From assembly GCF_000009705.1 (NCBI RefSeq), contig NC_003272.1:3150001-3182000 (forward strand): a stretch of DNA of 32,000 nucleotides, given 5' to 3'. This stretch comes from Nostoc sp. PCC 7120 = FACHB-418 (GTDB lineage Bacteria > Cyanobacteriota > Cyanobacteriia > Cyanobacteriales > Nostocaceae). Each line of letters begins with the position of its first letter. The stretch's first letter is position 1. Of the stretch, positions 1-30,900 are shown in pieces. Below the pieces are notes generated by a model, which worked only from the letters and a program-made list of their open reading frames with translations, was not told the origin of the DNA and ran no database searches. The position numbers and the translations under genes are program-made.

Positions 1-3000
1 AATGTCAGAAATGGACACATCAATATGTTGACAAGTCAAATTCGGGTATTCTTGGGGAATTACCTTCACTAAACCCAGAATCGTAGCATCATCAGGGTTA
101 AGATTTTCATTTCCCAGAACATTCTGTACTTGCTGAGTCAGTACATAAATTGACAGGGATGAGGAAGATAAAGCCTGAGTGAGCCAAAGTAAACTGTAAA
201 AACCCAGATTTTGCTGTTGTTGAAAATTTGTGCGCTCTTGGAGAGTCCAGGAATGTATAATTACATCAGGTAACTTATCATCTGTTTGTAATTGTAACCA
301 CAGTGTTTTGTAGTCTTCAGGGTTATGAGGTGCGATCGCATAATTATCACCTTCTTGAGTAAATCCCTCTCCCGGTTTGACAGTTACTACTTCCTGTCCC
401 GTTTCCTGAAGATGTTGTACTAATCTTTCCCCAGCATTCCCAGCATGACAAAATACTAAATATCGCTGTTTATTTAACGGTGCAGCAGAACGCAACAGGG
501 GTTTTTGTCTCCAAGAGGGCAAATAAAACCAATTTGAGATTTGTTCCTGCTTCTGGAGCGTTTTAGAGGTATTAGAAGTAGTTTCTGGTAATGTATCCCT
601 TTCTACCCAATAGCGTTGACGTTCAAAGGGGTAAGTTGGGAGGGGTAATCTTCGGCGTTGCTGTTGGGTATAAAGTTCTGACCAGTTGATAGTCACACCC
701 CTGAGCCAAAGTTGTCCCAAGGTTTTGCAAATCAAAGCTACATCAGATTGGGTGTCTTGGGGATGTCGTCCAGATGATAAGGTGGGGGGTGCATCGGGAA
801 ACTGTCTGACGAAGGTACTTAAAGTTTGACCAAAACCAACCTCTACAAAAATCTGATTGGGTGTTTGTTGGAGTTCGGTAATTCCTTCAGCAAATAACAC
901 TGGTTGACGTAAATGGGTAGCCCAGTAATTAGGGTTTGTGGCTTGTTCTGGAGTTATCCAAGTTCCCGTAACGTTGGAAATGAAGGGAATTTGTGGCGGA
1001 TGGAGGGAGATATTTTGTAATATTTGCGTTAAGGGAGTAACAGCAGTTTCCATCAAGGGTGAATGGAAAGCATGGGAAGTATGTAAACGTCGATGAGTAA
1101 TATTTTGATGTGTGAGCAGTTTTTCTAGTAGAGTAATTGCGGCTTCTGTTCCCGATACGACGCATAACTCAGGTGCGTTATGGACAGCGATGACTAAATC
1201 ATCAGTCAAAAACGGTTGCAATTTCTCAGGCGCAAGGGAAACCGAAAGCATGACTCCCGATGGACATTGTTGCATCAATTTTCCGCGCTGTGCCACTATT
1301 GCCAAAGCATCAGCTAAGGTGAAAACACCCGCCAAAGTTGCAGCCACATATTCCCCAATGCTGTGACCAATCATAGCCTGTGGCTGAATACCATAGGATA
1401 ACCAGAGTTTCGCTAGGGCGTACTCTACGGCGAATAGAGCAGGTTGGGCGTAGGTGGTTTGGGTTAGTAATTCGTAATTCGTAATTCGTAATTCGTAATT
1501 GAGATTGGGGACTGGGGATTGGGGACTGGGTGAATTTTCGTTGTCCTGTTTAAATAGGATGGAAGGTAAATCACAGCCTAGATGTGGTTGTAATAATTCG
1601 CTGCAATGGTCAATTTCTTTGCGGAAAACTGGTTCGGTGTTGTAGAGTTCTTGTCCCATGTTGAGGTATTGGCTACCCTGTCCAGGGAACATAAAAACTA
1701 TGCTGGGTTCGGTGTTTTCTGGGGAATAACTCAACAGTTGGGAAGCATCAACTCCTGTGAGGATTTCAATTGCTTGGGCAGGGGTTTGACAAACTAAGCA
1801 ACGACGATGGTTAAATGCTCGTCTACCAATTTGGAGAGTGTAAGCTACATCTGCAAGGTTTAATTCTGGATGCTTTTGTAAATGTGTAGCAAGGTTGATT
1901 GTTGCTTGCTCAAGTGCTTTCTCACTTTTAGCTGATAAACATAATAGATGATAATTAATTTTGAATTTTGAATTTTGAATTTTGAATTGTGTTGGTGCTT
2001 CTTCTAAAATTGCATGAGCATTAGTTCCACCCATCCCAAAGGAACTAACTCCAGCCCTTCTTGGGTGTTGATGATTTATCCAAGGTGTCAACTGAGTATT
2101 AACAAAAAATGGACTATTAGCAAAATCAATTTGCGGATTCGCCGCCGTAAAATTTAAACTTGGAGGAATTTGTTTGTGTTTGAGAGCCAAAGCAGTTTTA
2201 ATTAAACCACTGATACCCGCAGCCGCATCTAAATGACCAATATTAGTTTTAACTGAACCAACAGCACAGAATTGTTTTTGATGAGTATGTGGTGAAAATG
2301 CTTTAGTTAAAGCTGCAATTTCAATAGGATCACCTAAAGCTGTTCCTGTTCCGTGAGTTTCAATATATTGAATTGTCTCTGGATTTATCTTAGCTTTTGT
2401 TAACGCAGTAGTGATAGCTTTTGCTTGTCCGGTAACACTGGGTGCAGTTAAACCTACTTTTTGCGAACCGTCATTATTTATTGCTGTTGCTTTGATAATT
2501 GCATAAATATGGTCGCCGTCTTGAATAGCATCCCGCAGTCTTTTCAAGACAACAATTCCCACACCATTACCGAATACTGTGCCTTTCGCGTTAACATCAA
2601 AAGCCCGACAATAACCATCTGGAGAAAGTACACCATCTTCTTGATAAAGATAACCTGCTTTTTCCCCTATACCGATAGACACACCACCAGCAAGTGCTAT
2701 ATCGCATTCTTTATTTAATAAACTTTGACAAGCAATATGTACACTGACCAAAGAAGTAGAACAACCAGTTTGAATACCACAACTCGCACCTGTCAAATTC
2801 AATTTATAGGAGACACGAGTAGGCATTAAACCCATAACATTGCTGATCACGACTTGAGTGCGATCGCTATTTTCTCGATAATTAGAATTACTCGCTAAAT
2901 TCACCAAATAACTATTCAGTGCAGCCCCACCATACACAGCAATATTACCCGAATACTGCTCTGAATCATAGCCAGCATTTTCTAAAGCTTCCCAAGCACA

Positions 3001-3384: not shown

Positions 3385-3435
3385 AATTTTTCTACTCTTA
3401 AAATCTCTAATATGGAACTAAGAAAACTTATAAAT

Positions 3436-3466
3436 CTCACTCTGCGCTTCTGCGTCTCTGCGTGAC
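3436..3466. repeat. CTCACGCAGAGG-family repeat (CTCTGCG orientation) forming the 3' end of the 191-aa ORF
   Basis: ctcactctgcgcttctgcgtctctgcgtgac. Confidence 0.85.
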
Positions 3467-4455: not shown

Positions 4456-4464
4456 ATTTTTTTA

Positions 4465-4506
4465 ACGCAAAGGGGCGCAGAGGGAAACGCGGAGGGGCGC
4501 GGAGAG
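4465..4506. repeat. CGCAGAGG-family repeat, intergenic
   Basis: acgcaaaggggcgcagagggaaacgcggaggggcgcggagag. Confidence 0.85.
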
Positions 4507-4510
4507 AAGA

Positions 4511-5998: not shown

Positions 5999-6011
5999 AG
6001 GTGATTTTTAG

Positions 6012-6063
6012 CTCACGCATTCGACGAAGTCGTTCTCGAAGAGTAGGCGCAAAGACGCAAAGG
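6012..6063. repeat. CGCAGAGG-family repeat, intergenic
   Basis: ctcacgca...ggcgcaaagacgcaaagg. Confidence 0.75.
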
Positions 6064-6071
6064 AAGAAAGG

Positions 6072-6958: not shown

Positions 6959-7000
6959 ACGCAGAGGTACGCGGAGGTTAACGCAAAGGTGCGCGGAGGT
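6959..7000. repeat. CGCAGAGG-family repeat spanning the intergenic gap and the last codons of the hydroxylase-R gene
   Basis: acgcagaggtacgcggaggttaacgcaaaggtgcgcggaggt. Encodes ...NLRAPLR*. Confidence 0.85.
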
Positions 7001-8100
7001 TTGAGGGAGGTTTTTGGATGAGGTTTTTTTGGATGAGGTGGGAGAGGTAGGTTTGAATTAGGGTTTCGTTGATGGTTGGTGGGGGGATGAGTTGGTTTAG
7101 TATGGTTTGGGTTTTTCTGTTGTCAATTTGTAGTTTGTTGTTGGTTGGTGTTTGGTTGGTGGTTCTTTGTCTGGGTAATAGGGGAATTAGAGGATATAAG
7201 ATGTGTTCTGGGGAGTTTTGGGCTATTTGTAAGATTTGGTTGCGCCATTGATGATATGAGGTTTTCTTAATTTCAATGCCGACTTTTTTTAGTTGTTCAA
7301 ATACTATGTCTGAGGTTGTTGCTTGTGGTTGGATGATATGGAATATTTGTTGGTTGGATGTTATTTTTGATAGTTCAACAATGGCGCGACAAACATAATC
7401 TACTGGTAAGATTTCTAAGGGCATTGGTGTATCTGGAATGCTGCCTAATTGGACGTAACCTAACAGCAGTTTATAGAGGAAATCGTTTTGATTAAATACT
7501 CCTGTTTGACTGTCTCCTGATACTGCTCCTAAGCGATAAATTTTTACGGGTATTCCGCGTTTTACTGCTGTTATCGCTAGTTTTTCTGCTGCCCATTTAC
7601 TCTGAGGATAGCCACCAATAGGTATGCCATAATCATCTAAGTTAGCATCTTCTGTCACCTGGAAATTACTATTTTTATTACCTGCCAAAATACTGATTGA
7701 GGAAATTAAATGTACTGGTTTTAGTTTGCTCTGGCTGGCTAGGCGGAAAATTTCTTGAGTACCTAAAACATTCGCTGGTTTTAAGCGGCTGTAAGGTTCT
7801 GTGTGATTTACTCGCGCTCCGTTATGATAAATTACGTCTATCTGGTTGGCTAGGTTTTGAAATTTTAGTTCAGATAGTCCTAGTTTTGGTTGGGCTAGGT
7901 CGCCTACTATGGGAATAATTCTATCTGAGTATGAGCTATCCCAAATTTGGTAATCTTGTAAGGTTTTGATGATTCTTTGGGTGGCTATTTCAAGATTATT
8001 GGCTTTAATTAAACAATAAACTGATGCTGTGGTTTTGTTGAGTAGTTCTCTTAGGAGAAATGCGCCGATAAATCCGGTTGCACCTGTTAATAATAATGAG
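6978..8100 (-). other. Thioester reductase (SDR-type R) domain
   Basis: TGATGFIG nucleotide-binding motif, YCLIKA, YxxxK as YPQSK. Borders are approximate. Confidence 0.8.
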
Positions 8101-10039: not shown

Positions 10040-13000
10040 TTAAATTTCAAACTCCTCTCGTTCATCATCGCTGGTATCAGATATTACTGGAATTTCTGCC
10101 TTTAGTTGTCGTTGTAAAATTCGTTCCGCTAAACCTGCTACTGTTGGTGCATCAAACAAATCCATGACGGTAAGTTCGACTTGAAATACCTGCAAAGCTT
10201 GGGCGATTAATTGAGTGGCGATGAGAGAATGTCCCCCCAATTCAAAAAAGTCATCCTGAATACTCACCTTTTCTAACTTGAGTATCTGGGCGTATATATC
10301 GGCTAATTGCGCTTCGATATCTGTACGGGGGGCGATAAATTCAGCGTTTGCTAGGACTTGTTCGGGTGCGGGGAGTGCGTGGGTGTCTACTTTACCGTTG
10401 GGTGTCAGGGGTAAATCAGTCAGTAGCACAAACGCCGACGGAACAAGATATTCGGGTAACTTCTCTCGCATGAAAGCTCGGAGGGATTGGGGATTGGGGA
10501 TTGGGGACTGGGGATTGGGGATTGGGGATTGGGGAAATTTTTGCTCCCCTCCTTCCTCATTGGGAATGACGTAGGCGACTAAACGCTTCTCCCCTGGTTG
10601 GTCTTCGCGGACAATTACTACTCCAGCACGCACCCCAGGATGTTGACATAATAAGGTTTCCACTTCTTGCGGTTCAATGCGAAAACCGCGAATTTTGACT
10701 TGGTTATCAACCCTTCCTAAAAGTCTGATGCGACCATCAGGTAAGTAATAAGCTAAGTCACCGGTTTTATAAAGTCTGGAATCACTGTTGACTGTTGACT
10801 GTTGACTGTTGACTAAGGACACTTCTTTTCCCAGTCCCCAGTCCCCAGTCCCCAGTCCCCAGTCCCTAATAAATCTTTCGGCTGTTAAATCTGGGCGATT
10901 TAGATAACCTCGCGCTAAACCTATTCCACCAATGTAGAGTTCACCAATTACGCCGATGGGGACGGGTTGTAAATAATTATCTAATATATATAGTTGTTTG
11001 TTGGCACTGGGGCGAATGGTGGGAACTAGGGGATGACCGTTTCCACAAAGTACCATGCTGGCGTTGACTGTAACTTCCGTTGGGCCGTAAGCGTTGATAA
11101 AACGTCTTCCTTGTGACCATTTGGCGATTAATTCAGGTGATGGTGCTTCACCTCCTACTAGTACCATTCGCAAATGTGGTAAGTCTGCTGAGGGGAGTAG
11201 GGATAGGGCTGAGGGGGTGATAGTTATATGAGTAACTGCGTTGTCCCGTAGCAGTTTTAGTAAGGTTTCTCCTGGTAGTAAAGATTCTGATTTGGCTAGA
11301 CAAAGTTTTGCACCGCTTCCCAAAGCCATGATGATTTCGGGGATAGAAGCATCAAAGCTGAGTGAGAAAAATTGCAGTACACAATCACCGGGATGAACAT
11401 CACAAACTTGTATTTTATGTTGTGTGAGGTTGGTTAAGCCGATGTGGGGGATTAAAACCCCTTTTGGTTTACCAGTAGAACCGGAGGTGTAAATTAAATA
11501 AGCTAAATTTTCTGGTTTAACTTCACTTTCTGGGTTTTCTATACTGCATTGAGAAATTGTTTCCCAGTCTGTATCTAGGTAAATTATTTCGTAGCTTGAG
11601 GAAGTGGCAACTTTCAGGCTTGTTTCTGTTAGTAAAATTGGTACTTGGGAATCAGCCAACATATACCCCAGGCGTTCTGGGGGATAATTGGGGTCGAGGG
11701 GGAGATATGCACCACCAGCTTTGAGGATACCAAGTAAAGCGATGATCATTAATGGGGAACGCTCTACACATAATCCCACAATTACCTCTGGTTTCACCCC
11801 TTTTTTTTTGAGGTAATGAGCAACTTGATTACTTTTTTGATTGAGTTCTGTGTAAGTAAGAGACTGATTTTCAAAGATAATCGCTACTTCATCTGGTGTT
11901 TTTTCTACCTGCGCTGCAAATAAGTCTTGAAAGGTTAAATGGCTAGGACATTCTACTTGGGTTTGATTCCAATCAATGAGAATAGTTTGTTTTTCTTTAT
12001 CTGTCAGTAATGGTAATTCGGAAATCCGTTTTTGTGGATTCTCAACAATCGCCGTCAATACCGTTTGAAAATGTCCTACCATTCGGTTAATTGTCTCTGG
12101 TGCAAACAAATCTCGGTTATATTCAAATGCACCTACAAAACCCTCTGATGTTTCGTACATATCCAAACTTAAATCTAGTTTGGCACTTGCTTCTGTCCGA
12201 TTTAAAGGTCTGAGAGTTAACCCTGGTAATTCTAATTTTTCTGTAGGGGCATTTTCTAACCGAAATTTTACCTGAAATAGTGGATTAAAACTTAAATCTC
12301 TTTCCGGTTGCAGGACTTCTACTAATTTTTCAAAAGGTATATCTTGATGGTCGTAAGCTTGCCAAGTTGTATTTATTAGCTGCTGTAATAATTCCTGAAA
12401 ACTGGGATTATCTGCTAAATTTGTCCGCAATACTAATGTGTTGACAAAAAAGCCAATTAAAGCTTCTATTTCTCGACGATGGCGATTAGCTACGGGAGTC
12501 CCAACGAGGATATCTGTTTGTCCGGTATAGCGATGCAGGAGAATTTTATAAGCCGTGAGGAGGGTAACAAAAGGCGTGACACCTGCATTTTTTGCGAGTT
12601 TGATAATACCTTGACTCAATTGAGGAGAGAGAGAAAAAGATTCAATTGCACCCCGAAATGTCTGTACTCTTCCACGGGGGTAGTCGGTGGGTAATTGTAA
12701 TACTGGGAGGATACCGCCTAATTGTTGTCGCCAATAGTCTAGTTGAGTTTCTAAAACTTCTCCTTGTAACCATTGTCTTTGCCAAATTGCAAAATCAACA
12801 TACTGAATTGCTAACTCTGGTAAAGGGGATGGTTGATTACCACTAAAGGCAGTATAAAGGGTTGCTAATTCTTTAACTAAAATTTCCATTGACCAACCAT
12901 CAGAAACGATGTGGTGCATGGTAAATAAAACTACATTTTCATCTTTAGCTAGTTGGAGAATTTTCACCCGCAATAATACATCTGTGGCTAAATCAAAAGG

Positions 13001-13534
13001 TGTTTGTGCTTCTTTTAAAGCCAGGTGACGGACTTCTTCATCTTGTTCGAGGAGATTAAAGGCTTGTAAATCTATCACAGCCAGGGGAAGGGTGACACTC
13101 GGCTGAATATCTAAAACAGGATTTCCATCTACAGTTTTGAAGTTTGTGCGTAGTAGCTCATGACGTTGGATAATGGTATTTAGCGATCGCTCCAATAATC
13201 CAACATCCAAAATCCCCGTCAATCTGACTGCTGTCGGTAAATTATAAGTATAACTATCGGGTTGTAATTGTTCTAAAAACCACAATCTTTGTTGAGCAAA
13301 AGACAGAGGTAGGTTGCCGTTGCGTGGTGCTGGGGTAATTGCTTGTGTATAATTTGTAGATGACTTAGCTTGACGTAAAAAAGTGATGATTTCAGATTTG
13401 CGCGATCGCAATTCTCCAGTCAGTTCATCCGTCAGCACATCTTCAGGAATACTACACCGTAAATTAGCATCTTCTACCCACAATTTAACATCAAGGCTGT
13501 AAAGGTGTGCCAGAAATTTTTCAATAGTTTTCAT
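10040..13534 (-). CDS. NRPS subunit 4: N-terminal TubC-type docking domain-C(LCL)-A-T
   Basis: Docking: LYSLDVKLWVEDANLRCSIPEDVLTDELTGELRSRKSEIITFLRQ. C: LPLSFAQQRLWF, MHHIVSDGWS (Met206 codon 12917-12919). A: LAYLIYTSGSTGKPKG (~11465-11515), YKTGD, NGKVD. T: FFELGGHSL (~10215-10250). Manual specificity code DAPTLGAVNK, which I cannot assign. C-terminal tail ...SDTSDDEREEFEI. Confidence 0.95.
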   Translation of the reverse strand: MKTIEKFLAHLYSLDVKLWVEDANLRCSIPEDVLTDELTGELRSRKSEIITFLRQAKSSTNYTQAITPAPRNGNLPLSFAQQRLWFLEQLQPDSYTYNLPTAVRLTGILDVGLLERSLNTIIQRHELLRTNFKTVDGNPVLDIQPSVTLPLAVIDLQAFNLLEQDEEVRHLALKEAQTPFDLATDVLLRVKILQLAKDENVVLFTMHHIVSDGWSMEILVKELATLYTAFSGNQPSPLPELAIQYVDFAIWQRQWLQGEVLETQLDYWRQQLGGILPVLQLPTDYPRGRVQTFRGAIESFSLSPQLSQGIIKLAKNAGVTPFVTLLTAYKILLHRYTGQTDILVGTPVANRHRREIEALIGFFVNTLVLRTNLADNPSFQELLQQLINTTWQAYDHQDIPFEKLVEVLQPERDLSFNPLFQVKFRLENAPTEKLELPGLTLRPLNRTEASAKLDLSLDMYETSEGFVGAFEYNRDLFAPETINRMVGHFQTVLTAIVENPQKRISELPLLTDKEKQTILIDWNQTQVECPSHLTFQDLFAAQVEKTPDEVAIIFENQSLTYTELNQKSNQVAHYLKKKGVKPEVIVGLCVERSPLMIIALLGILKAGGAYLPLDPNYPPERLGYMLADSQVPILLTETSLKVATSSSYEIIYLDTDWETISQCSIENPESEVKPENLAYLIYTSGSTGKPKGVLIPHIGLTNLTQHKIQVCDVHPGDCVLQFFSLSFDASIPEIIMALGSGAKLCLAKSESLLPGETLLKLLRDNAVTHITITPSALSLLPSADLPHLRMVLVGGEAPSPELIAKWSQGRRFINAYGPTEVTVNASMVLCGNGHPLVPTIRPSANKQLYILDNYLQPVPIGVIGELYIGGIGLARGYLNRPDLTAERFIRDWGLGTGDWGLGKEVSLVNSQQSTVNSDSRLYKTGDLAYYLPDGRIRLLGRVDNQVKIRGFRIEPQEVETLLCQHPGVRAGVVIVREDQPGEKRLVAYVIPNEEGGEQKFPQSPIPNPQSPIPNPQSLRAFMREKLPEYLVPSAFVLLTDLPLTPNGKVDTHALPAPEQVLANAEFIAPRTDIEAQLADIYAQILKLEKVSIQDDFFELGGHSLIATQLIAQALQVFQVELTVMDLFDAPTVAGLAERILQRQLKAEIPVISDTSDDEREEFEI
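10483..10534. repeat. STRR1-variant array (ATTGGGG x6, ACTGGGG x1) in the A8-A9 loop of the NRPS4 A domain
   Basis: Counted directly. Read as PQSPIPNPQSPIPNPQS. Confidence 0.95.
10784..10814. repeat. STRR3 array (ACTGTTG)x4 in the A6-A7 loop of NRPS4
   Basis: Coding strand CAACAGT, read as NSQQSTVNS. Confidence 0.95.
10830..10866. repeat. STRR1 array (CCCAGTC)x5 in the A6-A7 loop of NRPS4
   Basis: Coding strand GGGGACT, read as DWGLGTGDWGLG. Confidence 0.95.
13370..13534 (-). other. N-terminal TubC_N-type docking domain of NRPS4
   Basis: MKTIEKFLAHLYSLDVKLWVEDANLRCSIPEDVLTDELTGELRSRKSEIITFLRQ precedes the C domain. Confidence 0.75.
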
Positions 13535-16500
13535 AGCGATATCTCCTTACGACCTGATTGTTCAGACGGGGTAGTTTGCATTTGTTGAATACTCTGTTGC
13601 AGAATCATAATTCGTTCTGCAAGTCCGGCAATTGTGGGTTTTTCAAATACACTATGTAAAGGTAAATCCAATTGAAAAGCTTCTCTGAGTCTTGATGTCA
13701 CCCGAATTGCTGAAAGGGAATTTCCCCCCAATTCAAAGAAGTTTTCATCTACTCCCATGCGTTCTAGTCGCAACACATCGGCCAAAATGTTGGCAATAAT
13801 TGTTTCTGTAGAATTACGCGGTGCAATATAAGATTGATTTGCATGGCGTACAGTTTCAGGTGTCGGTAAAGCTTGACGATTGATTTTACCGTTAGGCAAT
13901 AAAGGTAATTCTGACAACATCACAAATACAGAAGGCAACATATATTCTGGTAATTGAGATGCCAACAATTTTTCTAATTCGCTGGTGAAATCTGGCGACT
14001 CAAGGCTAGTTGATTTCTGCACCACATAAGCCCCTAAACGCTGATTATCAGCTTGTTTTGAGTCTAAAATCACCACCGCTTGCTGTACATCAGGATGTTG
14101 ATTAATTACCGCTTCAATTTCCCCTAATTCAATCCTCAACCCCCGAATTTTTACCTGATTATCCAATCGCCCCAAGTATTCTAAATTACCATCAGGCAAA
14201 TAGCGAGCAAGGTCGCCTGTTTTATAGAGAGTGCTGAGTGCTGAGTGCTGAGTGCTGAGTTGGGAGTTGAGAGTTGGGTTATTTTTTTCCCCAGTCCCCA
14301 GTCCCCAGTCCCCAGTCCCCAGTCCCCCAACAAACCTTTCCGTCGTTAAATCTGGACGTTTCCAATAACCTCTGGCGACTCCTACACCACCGATGTAAAT
14401 TTCACCTGGAATACCTAAAGGTACTGGTTGTAAATAATCATTTAAAAGGTAAATTTGGGTGTTAGTAATTGGACGACCGATAGGCACTGTATGTAAATTA
14501 TCTGTAGGCTGACATTGCCAATATGTGACATCAATTGCGGCTTCTGTCGGCCCATATAAATTGTGTAATTCTGCATCCAAATGCTGGAAGAAACGATTTT
14601 GAATTTCTATTGATAAAGCTTCACCGCTACAAATTACCCGCTTCAAGCTGTGACAACGTTCATTTAAATTTGGTGCTTCTAAAAACACTCCTAACATCGT
14701 CGGCACAAAGTGTAATGTCGTGATCTTGTGCTGTGCAATAATTTCTAATAAATAATTTGGATCTTGATGTCCTCCTGGTTTAGACATCACCAAACGACCA
14801 CCATTTAGTAATGTCCAGAAAAATTCCCACACTGAAACATCAAAACTAAAGGGAGTTTTTTGTAAAACAACTTCTCCTCTTTCTAAACCATACTGTTGCT
14901 GCATCCAATACAATCGATTACTCACACCGCGATGGGTGTTAATTACTCCCTTGGGTGTGCCTGTAGAACCAGAGGTATAGATAATATAAATTGCATCTTC
15001 ATGATTAACATTTGTGATGGGATTATTGTCAGGTTTCTGGGTGATTTCCTGCCAATCTGTATCTAAGCATAAGCACAAGGTTTTATTCAATACTTTGCTG
15101 GAGGCTTGGGAAGAGGTAAACCCTAGCAATTTTTCTAATAAACTTTCCTGAGTTAATACTACTGGGACTTGAGTTTCATTAATAATATATGTCAACCTAG
15201 ATGCAGGATAAGCAGGGTCAAGAGGAACATAACAACCTCCAGCTTTGAGGATACCTAAAATCCCAATGACCATTTCTAAAGAACGTTCAATATAAATCCC
15301 AACTGGTGTTTCTGGTTGTACTCCCCAGGTTTGCAAATAATGAGCTAATTGATTAGCACGTTGATTTAATTCTCTATAGGTAAGTTGTTGTTCCTCAAAG
15401 ACCACAGCAACATCATCGGGTGTTCTTTCTACCTGGATGTCAAATTGCTGATGAATACATTCTAGGGGATAATATGCTTCTGTTTGATTCCATTTGTGGA
15501 TGGTTTCATACTCTTGCTGAGTTAATAAAGGTAGGTTTCCTATTGTTTGCCCTGGTTGACTCATTCCTAATAACAAATTACAGAAATGCTCTAATAATTG
15601 AGTGATGGCATTATCTGTAAATCTGTTGCGGTCATATTTTACTTTTAATGACAATTGATTCCCTACAGAAACCAACATGGTTAAGGGAAAACTTGTCCAT
15701 TCTAAAGATTGAATATCAATAATACGTAAATCTTGGTTTTGGGAAATTCCCGATGTATCAACGGGATAATTTTCAAATACTAAAATACTGTCAAATAATG
15801 AAGTTCCTGGTGTAAGTTCGCTCCATTCTTGAATTTCTAAGAGTGATGTATATTCATATTCTAGAGCTTCTGCTTGTTGTGCTTGTAATTTTTGCAACCA
15901 CTCAACTAAATCATCTGTGGGTGATACCTGAACCCGCACCGGCAAAGTATTGATAAATAATCCCACCATTGACTCTACACCAGCGAGGGTTGCGGGTCGT
16001 CCTGATGAGGTTGCACCAAAGACTACATCGGTGGTGTTGCAATAGCGGCTTAATAATAAGGCAAAAGCACCCTGTAAGAGAGTATTCAGGGTTAATTGTT
16101 GCTCTTTTGCCCATTGTTGCAACCCAGTTGTTTGATTCGGGGTGAGACTGCGGGTTTGTTCTTGGGGTGTGAGGTTTTTGTTTTCTCTTTGGGCAAATCG
16201 TTGTATGACAGTGGGTGTAGTAAATCCTGCAAGTTGTTTTTGCCAGAATGTTTTAGCGGCAATTTTATCTTGTTGTTGTAACCAAGCTATGTAGTCACCG
16301 TAGGGGCGGGAATTAGGATAATAAGATGGGGAATTATAATAATTTTGAAATACTTCTTTAATTACTAATGCTGATGACCAACCATCGAGAATTAAATGAT
16401 GTTGTGTCCAGATAAGAATATATTTAGTTGCTGATAATTGAATTAGGGTTAAACGTAATAATGGAGGTTGTTTGATGTCGAAGGAGAAGGTGCGATCGCT

Positions 16501-16877: not shown

Positions 16878-16952
16878 CTCACGCAGAGGCGCAGAGACAC
16901 AGAGAGTAAGAGAACTCTGCGTACCTTTGCGTTACCTCCGCGTACCTCCGCG
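16878..16952. repeat. CGCAGAGG-family units in inverted arrangement (intergenic NRPS2/NRPS3)
   Basis: ctcacgcagaggcgcagaga...ctctgcgtacctttgcgttacctccgcgtacctccgcg. The left and right halves are imperfect reverse complements. Confidence 0.85.
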
Positions 16953-16969
16953 TTTCAAAAAAACTCCTC

Positions 16970-19900
16970 TCATAACTCTCCCAACAACTTATCTAATTCA
17001 TCTTGACTGAAATCCATTTGCGGGAAGTCAGAGGGAGTAAAGCCGCTAACTTCAGGGGTGAGACAATGCTGAATTAATGAAAGTAGTATCTGTTGATAGT
17101 TTTCTGCTAAGGTGGCGATGGTTTGGCGATGATGCAGTTGTTTGCTGTATGTCCAATCACATCGCAGTTTTCCTCCTGTGACGATGCTGTTAATTTCAAT
17201 CAGAGTGTTACGTTTCCCTCTAGAACTACGGCTATGTCCGATAGATTCACTGGCTGGGGTAAAGAGTGAATTTTCCGAGAAAATTTGGTCAGATTGTCCT
17301 AAATAGTTAAATCTGACTTGTGGTAAAGGTATTGCTTTGATAGTGTCTCGAATTGTTGGCGATGCTAAATAGCGCAACAACCCATAGCTAATTCCTCGGT
17401 CTGGAATTTGCCGTAGTTGCTCTTTGATAGCTTTGAGGGAAATCCCTAGATCGGCAGAGGGATATATATCTAATAATACTGGGAATAGGCTGGTAAACCA
17501 ACCCATTGTTCGAGATAAATTAATACTTGGAAACAAATCTTCTCTTCCATGTCCTTCTAGTTCTACTAACAAGCGATTTTCACCCGTCCATGTTTGGAAG
17601 GCTAAGACTAAGGCTGTTAATAAAACATCATTAATTTGGGTACGGTAGGCGTGAGGAACTTCTTGCAGGAGGTTTTGGGTATCTGTGACGCTGAGAAATG
17701 TAGAATAGGTGTCTACATCTGCCATTGTATTAGAACCTGGGGCATAATCTACGGGGAGAGGTGGTATTTGTTGCCAAGTGGGGGATGTCCAGTAATTGAA
17801 GGCTGCTTGTAAATCGGCACTCCAGGTATGTTCTTGTAGTTTATTTGCCCACTGTTGATAGGATGTGGTTTTGGGTGGGAGTTGGATTTGCTGTCCTTGG
17901 CTAAGTTGTTGGTAGGCTAGTTGCAAATCTTCGAGAAACACCCGCCAGGAGATGCCATCAATGATTAAGTGATGGAAAATCAGAAGTAAGCGATGATTTT
18001 GAGTTTCACCACAGTCAAAATAGGCTAAACGTAGCAATGGCGGTGTTTCTAGGTTGAAACTGGCTTGTAAATCATTGGCAATATTAGCTATTGTGTCTGA
18101 TACTTTTTCTGGGTGAAGGTTTGTCAATTCTGACATATCAAAATAATAAAACCCCTCTCCAAGCCTCTCCCCCAGAGGGAGAGAGGCTTTGATTTCTCCC
18201 CTTCCCTTGTAGAGAAGGGGTTGGGGGTTAGGTTTCTGCGTATTATGTAATTGATTGATGTCTGCTACAAATTGTCGCCAACCGTCGGGGGTTTGTTGGA
18301 AGTGCGATCGCAATCCATCATGGTGTGCTAATAGTTGATCTAATGCTTGCCGTAAGTAATCAGGGTTAAGAGATTGGTGTACTTCTAAAAGAATGGCTTG
18401 ATTCCAATGATGTGCATCTACTAGATTTTGCTCAAAGAACCATTGCTGAATAGGAGTGAGAGGAACTTCCCCTGTGATTGGTGTTTGCTCACTAGATAAT
18501 GTGGTATCAGTGTCCACAATGGCTGCTAGTTCTGCCACTGTTTGATATTGGAACATCTGCCGGGGTCGTAAAGCCAAGCCTTGTTGATTCGCTTTGGCTA
18601 CTGCTTGAATGGCTAAAATTGAATCACCACCCAATCTAAAGAAGTTATCATGAATGCTGATAGATTCTACCCCTAAAACCTGAGTCCAAATATTAATTAA
18701 TTGTTGTTCTATGGGTGTGCGGGGTGCGGTTGTGGTGGTGACTGGCGATAAATCAGGTATGGGTAAAGCAAAACGGTCTACTTTACCATTAGCTGTTAGA
18801 GGTAAAGTTTCCAGGATGACAAACGCTGTCGGTAGCATATAAGCAGGAAGTTTCGCCGCTAAAAATTGCCTTAATTCTGCTGCTTCAATGTGAGATTTGG
18901 GAACAACATAAGCTACTAGGCGGCTATGTTCTGGCGTATCATTGCGAACAATGGCGACAGCCTGCGTTAACTCTGGATGTTGATGAAGTAACGCTTCAAT
19001 TTCCCCCAATTCAATGCGAAAACCACGCAATTTCACCTGATGGTCGAAACGCCCCAGATATTCAATATTACCATCTGGAAGATAACGAGCGCGATCGCCT
19101 GTTTTGTAGAGAGTGTTGACTGTTGACTGTTGACTGTTGACTGTTGACTGTTTAATAAACCTCTCGTCCGTCAATTTTGGACGCTTCCAGTAACCTCTTG
19201 CTAACCCTGCGCCACTGAGGTAAATTTCACCGGGTATGCCAACGGGAACGGGTTGCAGGTTTTGGTCTAGGATATAAACTTGAGTGTTGGCGATGGGTTG
19301 ACCGATTGTCGGGGCTTGTTGACTATTGCGGGGAATGAGCGCATGGGTAGAGTAGGTGGTATCTTCTGAAGGCCCGTAAAGATTATATACGCGCTCAATT
19401 GTGGATTGTTGATAGAGTTCGTCTACCAACGATTTCGGTAAAGGTTCGCCGGCTAAGTTTACTGTCTGTACTGTTGCGGCAATACCATTTAAACGTAGCA
19501 GTTCTCTGGCGGCTGAGGGGACTGTATTGATTAAAGTAACTTGTGCGGCTGCTGGTAATTCTGGTAGTTGTAGGGCATTATCAGCGAGGATGACGCAACC
19601 TCCCCAACTTAGGGGAACGAAGATTTCAAATATTGAAAGGTCAAAACAAATGGAAGTGGAAGCTAAAACACCTGTTAATTCTGCTCTTGTGTAAATTTCT
19701 CGCGCCCAATACATCAGCGTTACCGGACTTTGATGAGTAATGGCGACTCCTTTGGGAATGCCTGTAGTGCCGGAGGTGTAGATGATGTAGGCTAGGTTGG
19801 TTGGGGACTGGGGACTGGGGACTGGGGATTGGGGACTGGGGATTGGGGTGTCTAGGGAAATTATGGGGATTTGGAGTTGGGGGAGTTTAGTTAATTGTTT

Positions 19901-22900
19901 TTGCTGGGTGAGTAACACCTGCATTTGGGAATCTTCAATAATAAATGCTAATCTGGCTTCGGGATAAGTGGGGTCTAGGGGAACGTAAGCACCGTCAGCT
20001 TTGAGGATAGCCAATAAGCCGATAATCATATCTAGGGAACGGTCAACGCAAATTCCCACGGGCGTTTCTGGCTGGACACCTAAACTTTGCAGATGACAGG
20101 CTAATTGATTGGCTTTGGTGTTTAATTCTTGATATGTTAGCTGTTTTTCACCCCAAATCACTGCTATCTTTTCCGGGGTTTGTCTCACCTGTGCTTCAAA
20201 TAACTCATGTAAACACTGCTGAGGATACTGGCGTTGAGTGGCGTTCCATTGTGCGAGTTGCTGCTGTTCAACAGTGGTTAATAACGGTAATTCGTTAATA
20301 TGCTGTTCGGGATTGAGAACTACTGCTTGTAATAATGTTTCTAAATGTCCAGCTAAACGCTCAATAGTTGTGGCTGCGAATAAATCAGTATTATATTCCA
20401 ACTTACAGCTTAAGCCTTGAGCAGTTTCGCTCACGAACCAAGTCAGGTCAAATTTTGCTGTACCACTATCCGCCTCAATTACTTGCCATTCTATGCCCCC
20501 CATATCCAACTCTGGCAAAGGTAAATTTTGTAACACCAGCATCACTTGAAAAAGAGGCGAATGACTGAGCGATCGCACTGGTTGCAGCACATCTACCAAT
20601 TGTTCAAAAGGTAAATCCTGATGAGCATAAGCACCCAAAGCAGTTGCCCGAACCCGTGACAATAAATCAGCAAAACTAGGATTAGCACTCAAATCAGTAC
20701 GTAAAGCCAGAGTGTTAGCGAAACAACCAATTAACCCTTCCGTCTCTACACGATTGCGATTAGCTATAGGACTACCAACCACAATATCATCATCACCACT
20801 GTAACGATATAACAGCACATTCCAAACAGCCAACAAAGTCATAAATAAAGTGCTGTGATAACGCCGACTCAACCCTTGCAAACCCTGAGTCAATTCCGCC
20901 GACAAACCAAACCCATATACAGCCCCCCGAAAAGACTGTACAGCCGGACGGGGGTAATCAGTCGGTAATTCCAACATCACCGGCGCAGACTCCAACTGTC
21001 CGCGCCAATACTCCAAATGTTCCTCTAAAACCCTCCCCCGCAACCACTCCCTCTGCCAAAAAGCAAAATCCACATACTGAATCCTCTCCTCCTCTCTGCG
21101 TCTTTGCGCCTTCCCTGCGGGACGCTCCGCGAATGCGCGAGAAATTTCCCGAACCAACAACCCCACAGACCAAGCATCAGCAATAATATGATGCAAAGTC
21201 AACAATAATACCTGATTCCCCTCCCCCAATTTTACCAACCGCACCCGCCACAACAAACCAGCCAAATCAAAAGGCTGCTGCGCCTGAGTTCGCGCCAACT
21301 CCTGCACCTGCTGCTGTTGTTCAAATTCCGGTAATCCCTGTAAATCAATCACTGGTATATTGACATCACAAACATCAGCAATCCTCAAAACAGGCTGTCC
21401 ATCGACATTCAAGAAATGCGATCGCAAAATTTCCTGTCGCCGCACCACTTCCGTAAAACTGCGCTGCAAACTATCCAAGTGGATATCACCCCGAATTTGC
21501 ACCGCCAAAGGAATATTATAAAAAGGGCTATCCGGTTCTAACTGCGCTAAAATCCAAAAGCGTTGCTGGGCAAAAGATAGAGGTAAGTTACCAGTGCGAG
21601 CAATCGGTAATATTGGGTTAATTTCGTGGTGACTATGTTCTATTACTCTGGCTAAATCCGCAATTTTCGGACTTTCAAACAGATTACGTAATGGTAACTC
21701 TACACCAAATACCTGCCGTACTTGAGAAATTAACCGCGTCGCCAGCAGGGAATGTCCCCCCAAATCAAAGAAATTATCCTCAATACCCACCGACTCGACA
21801 CCCAACACCATCGCCCAAATACTCGCCAAAACTTCCTCTGTTGGTGTGCGAGGGGTTTCATTTACCTGTGATTGGGTATTGGGAGTGGGTAAGGCTTTAC
21901 GGTCAACTTTACCATTAGGTGTGAGGGGTAAGGCTGTTAATGTGACAAACACCCCAGGAATCATATATTTTGGGAGTTTGTTGGCGAGGAATTGCTGTAA
22001 ATCATTGCTTCCCACATCCTGAGAATTGGGGACGATGTAAGCGACTAAACGCTGTTCTCCTGGTTCATCTTCTTGCACGCTTACTACTGCTTGTGATATT
22101 TGGGGATGTTGTGCTAATACTGCCTCAATTTCTCCTAATTCAATGCGAAAACCGCGAATTTTGACTTGATAATCTAATCTACCCAAGTATTCTAGTTTAC
22201 CATCTGGGAGATATCGGACGCGATCGCCTGTTTTATATAAGGTGTTGACTGTTGACTGTTGACTGTTGACTGTTGACTGTTGATTGAGAAATCTTTCTGC
22301 TGTTAAGTCTGGACGTTGCCAATATCCTTTGGCAACTCCTGCACCACCAATATATAATTCTCCTGGTACGCCGATGGGGACTGGTTGTAAATGCTCGTCG
22401 AGGACGTAAAATTGGGTGTTGGCGATGGGATGACCGATGGTTACGGGTTCATCTATACTGAGTTTTTGGGCTGCTGACCAAATGGTGGTTTCTGTTGGTC
22501 CGTATAAGTTCCAGACTTCTTGAGTACAGGATAATAATTGTTGGGCTAGGGTGTTATCTAATGCTTCGCCGCCACAGAGAATTTTCAAGTCCTGTTTACC
22601 TTCCCAACCACTGGCTAAAAGTAACCGCCAAGTTGCTGGGGTGGCTTGCATAAAGGTGATTTGATGTTGTGCGATCGCTTGTGCTAATCTCTCTCCATCT
22701 AGGGTGACTTCCCTTTCTACTAAGACTAAACAAGCACCGACAATTAAGGGTAAGAAAATCTCTAAGGCTGCAATATCAAAGGCTAGGGTGGTGACAGCTA
22801 AAAGGTTATCTTCTGCTGTGAGTCCTGGTGCTTTGGACATTGCGGTTAAGAAGTTGCTTAAGCTTCTGTGCAAAATTTGCACGCCTTTGGGTGTTCCGGT

Positions 22901-24823: not shown

Positions 24824-24852
24824 AATTTAATCAAGTAAAATAATATTTTTTC

Positions 24853-24957
24853 CTCACGCAGAGGCGCAGAGGCGCAAAGAGGAGAAAAGAGAGATAGTTT
24901 GATTAGAAAATTATCTCCTCTCCTCCTATTCTTCGCGTCTTTGCGTCTTTGCGTGAG
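24853..24957. repeat. CTCACGCAGAGG-family units in inverted arrangement spanning the NRPS1 stop and the NRPS1/NRPS2 intergenic gap
   Basis: ctcacgcagaggcgcagaggcgcaaagaggag ... ctcctctcctcctattcttcgcgtctttgcgtctttgcgtgag. The right arm encodes ...LSHAKTQRREE*. Confidence 0.85.
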
Positions 24958-27900
24958 ATAAATCATCCTCTTCTAACTGCATTTTTTGAAGTAAAATCTC
25001 TACTTCTTCATCAGAAAGTTCATCTAAATTTGCCAGTAATTCTTGTGGATTAATACGTTCAATAGGTTCAATTGTAATTTCTTGTTTTGCTTCCCACTGT
25101 TGTTTGAGTAACTCAGCTTGTGCAGTTAAGGTAGGATTGAGAAAAAATTCCCGAATGGGTAAATCAAGTTGGAGATTTTGCCGCATCTGAGTAATTATTT
25201 GAGTAGCTGATAATGAATTACCTCCCAATTCAAAAAAATTATTGTGAATGCTAGAAACTTCTACATTTAAAATAGATTGCCATAGTTGAGCTAGTGCTAT
25301 TTCTAATTCTGTAGAGGGAGGTATAATAGGCTGTTCAGATTGGCTAAATTGATATTCTGGCTGAGGTAACGCACGACGGTCAATTTTGCCATTTGGTGTT
25401 AATGGCAGCGTTTCTAGGGGAATATAGAGGCGGGGAATCATATATTCTGGCAATCTTTGTTGCAGGAATTGCCGTAGTTTTTGGGTAATTAATTCGGCTT
25501 TTGTTACCTTGGTTTGAGCAGTTTCAGGTGATAACCAACGGGTTGTCCAATGGGGGTCTATAATACCGCCTACAAACCCATGTAAGAATATTTGCTGCTC
25601 ATGTAAAATGAAATGTTCGCGGATCGCATCAAATTCTAAATCCCCAATGGGACACAAGCCTAAATTTTGATTTGGTGCGGTTTCCATTAATAGTTGACCC
25701 ATATAACCCGCTTCTAGTAAACAGAAGTCCCTAGATTTATCACCATAAACTGGCGAAATTGCTTGTAAGTCACCAATTAAAAAGATGGCAAATGCTGCTT
25801 GTGTAAAAATCTCTTGATTGATGCCATAGATACTACTATCAATGTTTGTCTCATCACTTAACTGGATAAGTTGATGTTTTTGGGGATGATAGTAATAAAA
25901 ACCAGCCGCTAAATTTTCAACTCGATGGGGTTTTATATAGATATATGTTTGGACTGGATATAAACTACCAGCCGAAGCATAGCGATATTTTGGTAATGGG
26001 GAATTTTCTAAATGTTGCATTTGCAAACACTCGAAAAATTCACCCAAGGCATTTAGAGGGATAGTTTCTGCTAAAAACTGTCTGTAACTTTGTCGCCGCA
26101 AATTGACTTGAGAAGATTTAACCCCAGGTAAAGCTACAGAATGCACCCCAGCATCAAATTTTCTGACTCCCTTTTGTTGCAATTTGAAATCCAGTTGTGA
26201 GGAGGAGTTAAGAGTGTTTTGACTAGCAATTACTTCTGGTTGCAATACCAGATAAGCAACTAATTGCTGTTGAGATAGTGCATTTCCCGCAGTTGTCACC
26301 ACAGCTTGAGTTATGGCTGGATGTTGTTGTAAAGCGGCTTCAATTTCTCCTAATTCAATTCGATAGCCATTAATTTTGACTTGAAAATCCTCCCGTCCCA
26401 AAAATTCTATTGTTCCATCAGATAAGTAGCGTCCTAAGTCGCCAGTTTTATATAGGGGTGTAGGGGTGTAGGGGTGTAGGGGTGTAGGGGGGAAATTCTC
26501 TCCCATGTCCAATTGAATAAATTTTTCCGCCGTTAATTCTGGATTTTGCCAATATCCTTTGGCGACTCCTAAACCACTGATGTAGATTTCGCCAATAGCC
26601 CAGGTGGGACAGGGTTCTAGGGAGTGGTTGAGGACGTAAACTTGTTGATTAGTCAATGAATAACCGTAGGGAATACTTTTCCAATTGGGGTCGATTGTCT
26701 CTATGGGGTAGAAAATTGACCAGATGGAAGCTTCTGTAGCACCGCCTAAGCTAATAATTTGGGGATGATTAAATTGGCTGCGGATGCGTGGGGGTAATGT
26801 GAGAGGAATCCAGTCACCACTGAGTAAAATTAGGCGGAGTGTCTGGTTTTGGGTGGGGGAGGTGTCAAGTAAAAGCTGCATCAGGGCGGGAACTGTGTTC
26901 CATATTGTCACCTGATGTTGGTTAATTAACTGCATCCAATGGGTGGGATCATTACCGCTTTTAGGAATGATGATTGTTCCGCCAGCCGCTAAAATGCCAA
27001 AGATGTCATACACGGATAAATCAAAACTAAGGGATGACACCGCTAAAACTCGGTCATTCTCTGTTACACCAAAGCGTTGATTAATATCTAATATTGTGTT
27101 GACTGCTCCCTGATGATCAATCATCACACCTTTGGGTGTTCCTGTTGAGCCAGAGGTGTAAATTACATAGGCTAAATCTGTGGGTTGACCTAACCCCCCA
27201 GCCCCCTTCCCTACAAGGGAAGGGGGAGAGTTTAAGATTGGTTCTACATCCGAAGAATCAGAGGGAGAGGTTAAAGCCTCTCTCCTTGTAGGAGAGAGGT
27301 TTGGAGAGAGGTCAACACATATCCGAGTTAGATGATCAGCCCATTCTAAAGTTGTATCTAACCAAGATTGGGTAAGTATAATTTGTGCTTGTGTTTCTTG
27401 TAATAGATGTAGACGACGCTGGGCTGGTAATTGCGGGTCAATGGGTACGTAGGCAGCACCAGCAGTTAGAATTGCTAAGGCTGCTACTATTTGTTCCCAA
27501 CCTTTATCCATGACAATTGCTACTAATTGGTTGGGAATTACACTTAATTGTTGTAAATGTTCGGCAAGATGACAGACGCGATCGCTCACCTGTTGATAGG
27601 TTAAAGTTTGTTCTGTGGTGACGATTGCGGTTTGGTTGGGTTGTTTTGCTACTTGCTGGAAAAATAGGGTTTGGAGGCAGGAGGCAGGGGGGCAGGGGGC
27701 AGGGGGCAGGGGGATGTGATTGGTATCGGGTTCTACTAACTGGTTGAGGAAATTACAGTAGGTGCGGAACATTTCATCTAACATTCCTGGGGGGAAAAGT
27801 TCATCAATGGTGTCCCAGTTAAATACTAATGCGCCGGCAACTTCTCCTACTTGATGGTCAAAATACACTTGGGAGGTTTGGCTGAGGCTGTATATTAATT

Positions 27901-30900
27901 CACCTTGCCAATTGCGGTTATCTTCTGGTTGTTGATAATCTTGGGTGAGGGTACTGGTAAAAACTACAGGCATTAATGCTTCTGTTACCCGTTGTTGCTG
28001 ACGCGCTAGTTGACGCAGTACCTCTACACCACTGAAATAACGATGGTCTAAATCATCCCACAGTTGGCTTTGGATGCGGTGAGCTAGTTCGAGGAAGTTA
28101 TTACACCCTGCACTCTTCATTTCTAGCAGCAGAGACGCTGTGAAGTCTCCGACAATTTGATTGACTTCGGGATGTAGGGGTAGACGGTTAAATAAGGTCA
28201 GATTTAGGGTGAAATTGGGTTGTTTGCTCCACCGTGAGAGAATTTTGGCAAAAGCAGCCAAAAGTATGCCGGATGGTGTAATTCCTGCTTCGCTGGCTTG
28301 CTGTTTGAGTTTTTGCCATTGGGTTGGGGATAAAGTTCCACTGCGACGGGTGAAATGCGGTTCTGTAATTTTACTGAGGGGTTTAGTTAAAGGTAATTCT
28401 GGTGCAGGAGGCAGGGTAGTCAGGCGATTTTGCCAGTAGGCTTGAGAACGGTGATAAATCGCTGAGTCTTGTAATGTTTTTTCTGTGAGGACGTAATCTC
28501 GGAAAGTTAAGTTAATGGGTGGTAACTCGACCTCTGGATTTTCCATAATTTGGACTAATTCTCTCCCTAATAAGCGAAAACTCCAAGCATCGCCGATTAA
28601 AACATCAAAGCTGATGCAGAAGCGGGTTTTGTTGTCATTTAATAAAATTGCTTGAATTTCAAATAAAGGATAGCTGTCAGTGGGGCGAACTTGATGAGAA
28701 AGGCGTTGGCGGATATCCTGGAGTGCAGAAGCTACCCCACGCAAATCTGTCACCGCAATTTTGAAATCCGGTACTTGTGATAAAACCTTTTGCTGTCCAT
28801 CAGCTTGGACAATCACCCGCAGCATATCATGACGCTCAATCAATCGCTGCATCGCCATTTCTACCTGTGCAACACTTAACCCCACCGTCTCAATTTCTTG
28901 ATAACCATGAGTAGCAATGTTACCCAACTCAAAAGCGGCGTTACGTCCGATGAGGTAAGCTTGCTGAATATCTGTCAGGGGAAAAGGTTGATAGCGTTCC
29001 TGGGGTTGGGGTTGAATTTTGGGTAGTCCGAAACCTAACCCCCTAACCCCCTTCCCTACAAGGGAAGGGGGGAATGTCAAAGCCTCTCTCCTCGTAGGAG
29101 AGAGGTCAATCTGTGCGGCTAAACTGGCAATGGTGGGAAACTGAAATAAATACTTTAGGGGTAATTCTACCTGCAAGGATTCGTTAATTCTCGCTACTAA
29201 CTGCATCCCCAGAAGTGAATGTCCGCCCAATGTAAAAAAGTTATCATAAATGCCGATAGGCTCAACTAAAAGTATTTCTCGCCAAATCACCTCTAAAGCT
29301 TGCTCTGTAGCTGTGCGAGGTGCTACATAACCAATTCCTAATTCTGAAGATAAATTTTCAACTGCGGGTAATGCCTTACGGTCAATCTTACCATTGGGAT
29401 TACGTGGCAGTGCATCCAAAGTCATGAAATGAGCAGGAATCATGTATCCAGGTAATTTATCTGTCAAATAATGCCGTAAATCTGCAATATTGATATTTTT
29501 AGGAGCAATATAAGCAACTAAATTTTTATCACCTGATGATGTTTCACTAGCAATCACGACAGATTCTTGAATTTCTGGATACTGACTGAGTAAAGCGTCT
29601 ATCTCGCCTAATTCAATGCGATAACCACGTATTTTTACTTGATTATCTAACCTACCTAAGTATTCAATATTGCCATCAGGCAGATAACGAACGCGATCGC
29701 CTGTTTTATATAAAGTGTTGACTGTTGATTGTTGACTGTTGACTGTTGACTGTTGATTAATAAACCTTTCTGCTGTTAATTCTGGGCGTTGCCAATATCC
29801 TCTGGCGACTCCTGCACCTGCAATGTATAATTCTCCTGGAACACCAACGGGTACTGGTTGTAAATGTTTGTCTAAAATATAAACTTGAGTATTGGCGATC
29901 GCACGACCAATAGGAGGAGTAGGACTATTTGGGGTAATATCTTTCAGTTCTATGTAAGTAGAATAAGTAGTATCTTCCGAAGGGCCATAAAGATTATAGA
30001 TGTGCTGAACATGGGGGAGTTGTTGAAGTTGCTGTACTAATTTCCATGTCAGAGGTTCACCCGCTAAATTCACTGTGTTCACAGAATGAGGAATAGCATT
30101 AAAGTTGAGAAGTTGAGTTATCGCACTTGGTACAGTATTAATTAACGTCACCTCATATTTAGCAGGTAAATTCGGCAATTCCAGAGCATTTTCTGCCAAA
30201 ATTACCTTACCCCCCCAACAAAGCGGGACAAAAATCTCAAACACCGATAAATCAAAACAAATAGAAGTAGCCGCCAACACCCCAGAAATCGCCTCATCAC
30301 AAAAAACCTCACGCGCCCAGTACAATAAACAAACTGGACTGCGATGCTCAATCATCACCCCTTTAGGCTTACCCGTAGAACCCGAAGTATAAATCAAATA
30401 AGCCAAATTCCCCGGCGTAACATCCGTCACAGGATTAGTAACAGGATATTCCCCAACACTCTCCCAATCTCCTAAATCAACAACCTTCTTTTCTTCCTTT
30501 GCGTCTTTGCGCCTTTGCGTGAGCATTACCTCCACTTTCGCATCATCCAAAATATACTGTAATCTCTCATCAGGATAAGCCGGATCGAGCGGAACATAAA
30601 AACCCCCAGCCTTGAGAATAGCTAACATCCCAATCACCATTTCCGGGGAACGTTCCAGACAAATTCCCACAGGCGTTTCTGGCTTAACTCCCAAAGTTTG
30701 TAAATAATAAGCCAGTTGATTAGCCTTAATATTAATTTCTCGATAAGTAAAAGCTTCCTCACCAAAAATCAAAGCAATTGCATCAGGAGTTCTTTCTACC
30801 TGCGCTGCAAATAATTCATGAATACACTCATGAGTAGGATATTCCCGTGATGTCGCATTCCAATTATTTAATAATTCTGCTTCCTGAGCAGTTAATAAAG

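Follow-up and report, generated by a model that had tools for sequence, protein, structure and literature searches.

The STRR sequences of heterocystous cyanobacteria, reportedly described by Mazel et al. in 1990, are heptanucleotides with the units CCCCAGT (STRR1) and CAACAGT (STRR3), and the STRR2 unit is reportedly TTGGTCA. We analyzed a stretch of 32,000 nucleotides of the Nostoc sp. PCC 7120 chromosome (positions 3,150,001-3,182,000 of contig NC_003272.1, hereafter the window), which lies in a siderophore cluster of nonribosomal peptide synthetase (NRPS) and polyketide synthase (PKS) genes, namely all2641-all2645 and a PKS gene, and which contains 15 short tandem arrays; arrays of CCCCAGT are called STRR1 and those of CAACAGT STRR3 throughout. 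Two further systems are closely comparable. The TAACTGA repeats of Beggiatoaceae and cyanobacteria give stop codons when the forward tandem is translated, so that this orientation can only end an open reading frame (ORF), whereas the reverse tandem can be translated, and ORFs contain the repeat in this orientation only (MacGregor 2015, PMC4679880). In Nostoc PCC 7120 itself, 89 G-rich repeats with the G-quadruplex-forming unit GGGGA(C/T)T have been tabulated, and an intergenic location is reported for 68% of such repeats (Rehm et al. 2015, PMC4692102).

Tandem Repeats Finder (TRF) and an exact-period scan revealed 14 heptamer arrays and one octamer array in the window, with 3.1-7.6 copies each and at the positions given in a preliminary description of the sequence. 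All of them are located in frame inside minus-strand NRPS/PKS ORFs. A unit of 7 or 8 nucleotides is no multiple of 3, therefore each array is read in all three phases, and the core claim of the preliminary description, that an ORF keeps an orientation only if the tandem unit is stop-free in every phase, is supported: scripted three-phase translation found 15 of the 15 arrays in a stop-free orientation on the coding strand. Very probably, these are ordinary STRR-type microsatellites that settled in permissive loops and linkers of the siderophore megasynthase genes, are translated as repeats of 7 or 8 residues, and are filtered by selection. An array persists in a working gene only if no phase of its unit has a stop on the coding strand and if the insert has a net length divisible by 3. 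Replication slippage, or else recombination of one array with another, would add and remove units; insertion and expansion would be neutral with respect to orientation, while purifying selection would remove the stop-containing orientation and the out-of-frame lengths, and the surviving arrays would accumulate in permissive loops. With orientation-neutral growth and purifying selection, the orientation rule would be a survivorship effect rather than a property of the repeat machinery.

Five arrays consist of STRR1 or its CCCCAAT variant and four of STRR3, while GAATTAC, CAAAATT, AGCACTC, CCCCCTG and the octamer TACACCCC are non-canonical, if the canonical units are taken to be the three given above. 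For GAATTAC, CAAAATT, CAACAGT, AGCACTC and TACACCCC the coding orientation is open, the complement contains a stop, and only the open orientation is present, as the preliminary description had stated. The STRR3 arrays are all open as well, albeit four in number (10784, 19114, 22243 and 29716) instead of the five initially counted, with no fifth array detectable at 2 mismatches. STRR1 is open in both orientations and occurs in both, as GLGTGDW at 10830 and 14288 and as PSPQSPV or PNPQSPI at 1503, 10483 and 19801. It is the only unit seen both ways, but not the only one open both ways, a property shared by the CCAACTC-like unit at 14257, CCCCCTG at 27676 and CCTCTGCG at 22998. The idea that reading in all three phases acts as a stop filter holds only if the stop triplet occurs three times, as exactly 3 units of ACTGTTG leave one phase open; with stops in two phases, a 2.4-copy octamer at 29034-29052 is translated in the remaining one. 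An antisense ORF of 98 codons had been explained by an STRR1 array, which accounts for codons 69-86 (18 codons) and not for the rest. If orientation is assumed to be free, the finding that eight of the eight arrays whose unit is open one way only are in the open orientation has P = 0.004, or P = 0.03 with the 5 unit types as independent events.

The six adenylation (A) domains of the window, where Pfam gives AMP-binding matches, carry arrays in one and the same loop, between the core motifs A6 and A7 (6/6 domains, four unit types). In most homologs this loop has 10-13 residues, typically IPNPFSxxPGAR; it is retained in this form in non-cyanobacterial homologs, whereas cyanobacterial ones are often repeat-derived there. 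In five of the A domains the arrays are bordered by RPxLTxERF and LYKTGD motifs that share a frame, and in the sixth the flanks are FIQLDMGENFPP...PLYKTGD. Compared with the solved A domain of LgrA (6mfy), the array region of all2643 is an insertion of about 25 residues with matching flanks. The cluster is syntenic and intact across four genera, the orthologous clusters compared being those of Trichormus (L121), Anabaena CCY 9402-a (L123) and Cronbergia (L124). About 75-80% of the alignment columns are identical among the four genomes, yet the repeat peptides differ at the same loops, which indicates that the array sites turn over quickly. The STRR1 array at 10483-10535 is missing from the three orthologs, the site of the 19801-19848 array holds STRR3 or another element in orthologs, and the octamer TACACCCC of 26453-26490 is also present in A6-A7 loops of the Trichormus ortholog. 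The pile-up of arrays would be due to the tolerance of a surface loop. A literature search, with older subscription papers outside its reach, returned no description of a hot spot of repeats in the A6-A7 loop or of STRR in NRPS adenylation domains. In the three A domains with an STRR3-only loop (near 19095, 22225 and 29700), the GDR codons of LYKTGDR read GGCGATCGCG and thereby include the HIP1 palindrome of cyanobacteria, GCGATCGC, within a few bases of the array.

Length changes of the arrays involve whole units: a difference of 3 units (21 nt, 7 residues) separates orthologs, and a change of 1 unit breaks the frame. In all2644, the second A domain has a loop of 45 nt in PCC 7120, compared with 24 nt in the Anabaena CCY 9402-a ortholog, a difference of exactly 3 units (21 nt), and the Nodularia spumigena orthologs P0012 and P0013 differ by a single 7-residue gap at this loop and by no other gap. 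The one-unit change comes from a contig (L125) of the ENA metagenome assembly ERZ926320 of the reads ERR1254284. Over 22.65 kb this contig is 99.965% identical to PCC 7120 and differs by a single mismatch and a single indel. The indel, at 12500-12560 of the contig, removes exactly one GGGGACT unit from the array 14288-14327 and splits all2643 into 883 and 222 aa; arrays make up 1.7% of the span compared. The shortened allele may reflect real slippage or an assembly error. The only other near-identical contig read as DNA (L126; 99.991% identity over 23.5 kb) has no indel, and a metagenome scan using the flanks with a variable gap detected no other length alleles of the all2643 array.

Such an allele raises the possibility that the arrays themselves are selected, either as slippage-driven on/off switches (phase variation) or as G-quadruplex or linker elements by which expression or the dynamics of domains would be adjusted, with stop-free units favored for switching. 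A one-unit loss that truncates all2643 is after all the sole indel between sequences 99.965% identical, arrays occupy one site in all six A domains, and all2642-all2648 hold 7 of the 89 G-rich repeats tabulated for the 6.4-Mb chromosome. We nevertheless regard selection of the arrays as unlikely, considering that the variant is a single one from a short-read metagenome assembly, for which an assembly error or a dead-end mutation is equally likely, that the second near-identical contig lacks any indel, that the loop content varies among orthologs, and that no reversibility or phenotype is known. In its boldest form, the siderophore megasynthase genes would be slippage-prone switches, in which gain or loss of one unit reversibly toggles all2643 and perhaps other modules among the cells of a population, the A6-A7 loop of cyanobacterial A domains would be a favored insertion site and be continually re-colonized, and contig L125 would be a snapshot of the process; this, too, appears improbable.

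For a comparison with other loci, a (CAACAGT)x3 scan of one genome per species returned at least 120 stretches, nearly all from filamentous cyanobacteria (Microcoleus, Tychonema, Calothrix, Nostoc); the results in this paragraph and the next one hold among the matches listed. Of 128 STRR3 arrays, 16 are inside long ORFs, and all of these (16/16) are in the open orientation, with no intragenic array in the stop orientation. As predicted in the preliminary description, intergenic arrays are unbiased: between co-directional genes 33 are open and 29 in the stop orientation (p = 0.70), and the corresponding numbers for arrays of at least 4 copies are 25 and 26. The other heptamer arrays of these loci gave 41 intergenic and 0 intragenic cases of units closed both ways; units open both ways are intragenic in 4 of 23 cases. 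Another explanation would be that the mechanism which makes or spreads the arrays sets their orientation, by a bias coupled to the transcription or replication strand, and that the lack of stops is coincidental. The single-strand gene layout of the window indeed confounds transcription, replication and coding orientation, and intergenic STRR3 arrays are mostly stop-oriented near the 3' ends of genes and mostly open near the 5' ends. However, STRR1 is found in both orientations in same-strand genes of the window, the intergenic STRR3 ratios (33:29 and 25:26) are balanced, and the coding rule is obeyed by five unrelated unit types; hence, we consider an orientation bias of the mechanism very unlikely.

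Where an intergenic STRR3 array is located within ~40 nt of a stop codon, its orientation relative to the gene concerned is mostly the TGA-containing one; directly upstream of gene starts, most arrays have the open orientation, and a few arrays themselves provide the stop codon. STRR3 is also read in frame as QQSTVNS repeats in conserved ORFs of housekeeping type from other cyanobacteria (L090 1207-1248, L114 6402-6422, L095 1908-1928 and L004 6886-6906), including a glycine dehydrogenase-like ORF with the array at the same site in L090 and L114, and a tRNA-synthetase-like ORF. One in-frame case comes from a metagenome-assembled genome of Niabella (Bacteroidota).

The preliminary description took the orientation of the arrays as a sign that they are genuinely translated. 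This conclusion is borne out, with a better basis than orientation, by the A-domain motifs that flank the arrays in a continuous frame and by peptides of all2643 and all2644. In a proteogenomic study (PMC8557916), all2643 was detected with 6 peptides, and the all2644 peptide TGDRVRYLPDGK from the same source maps to 22231-22196, immediately downstream of the array 22243-22283 and in frame. The supplementary tables of that study, as far as they are available, hold no peptide over any array of the window, array-spanning tryptic peptides included; a candidate STRR1-type peptide, ...HGDWGLGTGDWGLR, which maps nowhere in the window, is among the genome-search-specific peptides. That the arrays are not translated at all, either because the genes are decaying pseudogenes or because the repeats are removed or bypassed, so that orientation would say nothing about coding, agrees with the lack of array-covering peptides in these tables, but is extremely improbable in view of ORFs that reach at least 2617 codons with complete domain sets, the conserved motifs that share a frame on either side of the arrays, the intact and syntenic cluster in four genera, the peptides just mentioned, and the report, so far as PMC4005646 relates it from Jeanjean 2008, that siderophore production needs the cluster.

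Several considerations weigh against our interpretation of the arrays as translated microsatellites filtered by selection, or limit what can be drawn from it. Given intact ORFs the orientation outcome is forced; the result cannot fail, is nearly tautological, and carries little independent statistical weight. Nor are all the arrays likely to be separate cases. Over about 200 alignment columns, the STRR3 arrays have flanks with 84-100% identity among the four, against 30-60% in most of the remaining A-domain sequence; judging from this similarity, the four arrays may descend from one or two events and have spread by duplication or gene conversion, and we rejected their use as four independent tests of the rule on account of the near-identical flanks. 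A pure coding filter leaves the position-dependent orientation near gene ends unexplained, although this pattern may in part be an artefact of ORF calling, and genes in the 120 loci were called by a long-ORF heuristic, without annotation. Finally, the tolerance of the A6-A7 loop is what we infer, as an AlphaFold2 model of all2643 based on a 23-sequence alignment was too poor to show exposure (mean pLDDT 58, residues 762-904 below 50). A sequence comparison also bears on the origin of a non-canonical unit: AGCACTC (14229-14260) and STRR3 (19114-19152) share the 3' junction CACTCTCTA[TC]AAAAC and differ, when aligned in register, at two positions out of 7, which suggests that AGCACTC is a mutated STRR3 unit that spread through the array by homogenization.

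Every long ORF of the window is on the minus strand (Table 1). Pfam searches identified four NRPS genes with modules of condensation, adenylation and thiolation domains (C-A-T), one of which includes a nitroreductase-type oxidase, as well as a methyltransferase, an aminotransferase and a PKS with ketosynthase (KS) and acyltransferase (AT) domains. The three-part fusion of all2641 in one protein is unusual and is kept in the orthologous clusters. A frameshift was considered as the cause of the short call of all2645 and rejected, since the ORF leaves the window at its right end. A variant of the 1102-aa NRPS that differs by one residue is annotated in Anabaena sp. FACHB-709. The genes all2641-all2649 are under FurA regulation and are reported to make siderophores (PMC4005646).

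Table 1. Repeat arrays, genes and other features of the window (coordinates in nucleotides of the window)
Feature	Position	Strand	Peptide, location or remark
GAATTAC x4.9	1467..1500	-	NYELRITNYEL; PKS acyltransferase-domain loop just before T..AQPALF motif; complement ...TCG TAA
STRR1 (CCCCAGT/CCCCAAT on coding strand) x4	1503..1530	-	SPSPQSPVPN; PKS loop shared with 1467 array; open both ways
CAAAATT x4.6	1957..1988	-	FKIQNSKFKI; start of KS-AT linker, directly after GTNAHAILEEAP; complement ...TTT TGA
STRR1 x7.6, C-rich coding strand	10483..10535	-	PQSPIPNPQSPIPNPQS; all2642, loop between A8 and A9 (LPxYM)
STRR3 CAACAGT x4.4	10784..10814	-	VNSQQSTVNS; all2642, A6-A7 loop
STRR1 x5.3, G-rich coding strand	10830..10866	-	DWGLGTGDWGLG; all2642, A6-A7 loop
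AGCACTC x4.6	14229..14260	-	LSTQHSALST; all2643, A6-A7 loop
Imperfect CCAACTC-like heptamer x3.1	14257..14278	-	NPTLNSQ; all2643, A6-A7 loop; open both ways
STRR1 x5.7, G-rich coding strand	14288..14327	-	GGLGTGDWGLGTG; all2643, A6-A7 loop
STRR3 x5.6	19114..19152	-	QSTVNSQQSTVN; all2644, second A domain, A6-A7 loop
STRR1 x6.7, C-rich coding strand	19801..19848	-	PIPSPQSPVPSPQSP; all2644, loop immediately ahead of core motif A3 (LAYIIYTSGSTG)
STRR3 x5.9	22243..22283	-	NQQSTVNSQQSTVN; all2644, first A domain, A6-A7 loop
Octamer TACACCCC x4.8	26453..26490	-	PPTPLHPYTPTP; all2645, second A domain (oxidase insert), A6-A7 loop
Imperfect CCCCCTG heptamer x5.3	27676..27713	-	PLPPAPCPPAS; all2645, just upstream of second A domain; open both ways
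STRR3 x5.9, one variant unit	29716..29756	-	NQQSTVNSQQSTVN; all2645, first A domain, A6-A7 loop
A6-A7 loop regions	10757-10897, 14212-14358, 19094-19183, 22223-22315, 26453-26490, 29696-29788		canonical PNPF...R loop gone
KS-AT PKS ORF	start near 3384, continues past left window end	-	holds arrays near 1500 and ~1960
all2641	6978-10037		CmlA-type diiron beta-hydroxylase (N-terminal domain + metallo-beta-lactamase fold), TubC-type docking domain, terminal reductase
all2642	10040-13534	-	
all2643	13531-16839	-	
all2644	16970-24823	-	
all2645	start 24926, continues past right window end	-	
Antisense ORF, 98 codons	10278..10574	+	probably no gene
ACGCAGAGG-like 9-mers	3447-3463, 4465-4495, 6055-6063, 6959-6989, 16881-16953, 24856-24954		

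Two other kinds of small repeats were observed. The window contains 23 ACGCAGAGG-like 9-mers, compared to 3.5 expected, and almost all of the junctions between genes of the cluster have a group of them; those at 24853-24957 make up an inverted repeat of 28 nt, and two further sets are in frame within all2644 (22997-23013) and all2645 (30496-30520). They look like another small dispersed repeat family. In-frame peptides such as FPPSLVGKGVRGLG and PLLYKGRGEIKASLPLGERLGEG are encoded at 29034-29052 (all2645) and 18152-18241 (all2644); similar strings are insertions in the all2644 orthologs of Trichormus and Anabaena CCY 9402-a near residue 1233 of the PCC 7120 protein, and also appear in other cyanobacterial NRPS loops (SPPSPLLTKERGAVGGVR). 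Peptides of this type seem to derive from a dispersed G/C-rich element and not from a heptamer array.

From the practical point of view, the repeat peptides QQSTVNS, DWGLGTG and PSPQSPV mark permissive loops of NRPS and PKS proteins, and the A6-A7 loop would accept 15-50 arbitrary residues, a property relevant to engineering and to the insertion of tags. The arrays are indel hot spots through which a biosynthetic gene can be disrupted unnoticed, be it in a culture line or in an assembly, and they should be checked whenever a cyanobacterial cluster looks frameshifted. Annotation pipelines can be expected to call spurious antisense ORFs over units that are open both ways.

In part of their unit sequences, and in their perfect or near-perfect head-to-tail heptamer tandems and host group, the arrays of the window resemble the STRR, with which they also share the many dispersed copies (at least 120 stretches with (CAACAGT)x3). 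The classic account of STRR stresses intergenic copies, whereas the 15 arrays of the window are all intragenic and in frame, and the units GAATTAC, CAAAATT, AGCACTC and TACACCCC are outside the canonical three. With the TAACTGA repeats they have in common the argument from stops and orientation, which holds for the window (8/8) and for the other STRR3 arrays (16/16, among the matches listed); the TAACTGA repeats differ in their unit and in a location that is for the most part 5' of genes, and their description mentions no hot spot in NRPS loops. The relationship to the G-quadruplex-forming repeats is one of partial identity, as repeats 44-47 of PMC4692102 are the STRR1 arrays 10483, 10830, 14288 and 19801, at genome coordinates equal to those of the window plus 3,150,000, each marked there for the coding strand or the non-coding one (repeat 44 as "all2642 (non-coding)" and repeat 45 as "all2642 (coding)"). 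These four arrays and the one at 1503 contain four or more G4 tracts in succession, with A(C/T)T as the spacer. Three-phase translation, units that are not G-rich and the A-domain loop are undiscussed in that work. The phase-variable contingency loci of host-adapted bacteria are similar in that a non-triplet repeat is present in an ORF and a change of one unit shifts the frame and truncates the product. They differ in that the genes of the window are biosynthetic and do not encode surface antigens, in that the arrays are located mid-gene and not near the 5' end, and in that reversibility, a high switching rate and adaptive use are without evidence in the window arrays. The orientation rule is what selection and translation would lead one to expect, it has been published before, and it is close to a logical necessity for an intact ORF. 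By itself it adds little, since it follows from translation and is in print for heptamers, and since an earlier table lists four of the five STRR1 arrays. Compared to what was known of these systems, the loop hot spot, the contrast between changes of 3 units and of 1 unit, and the frameshifted allele are modest additions to the known rule.

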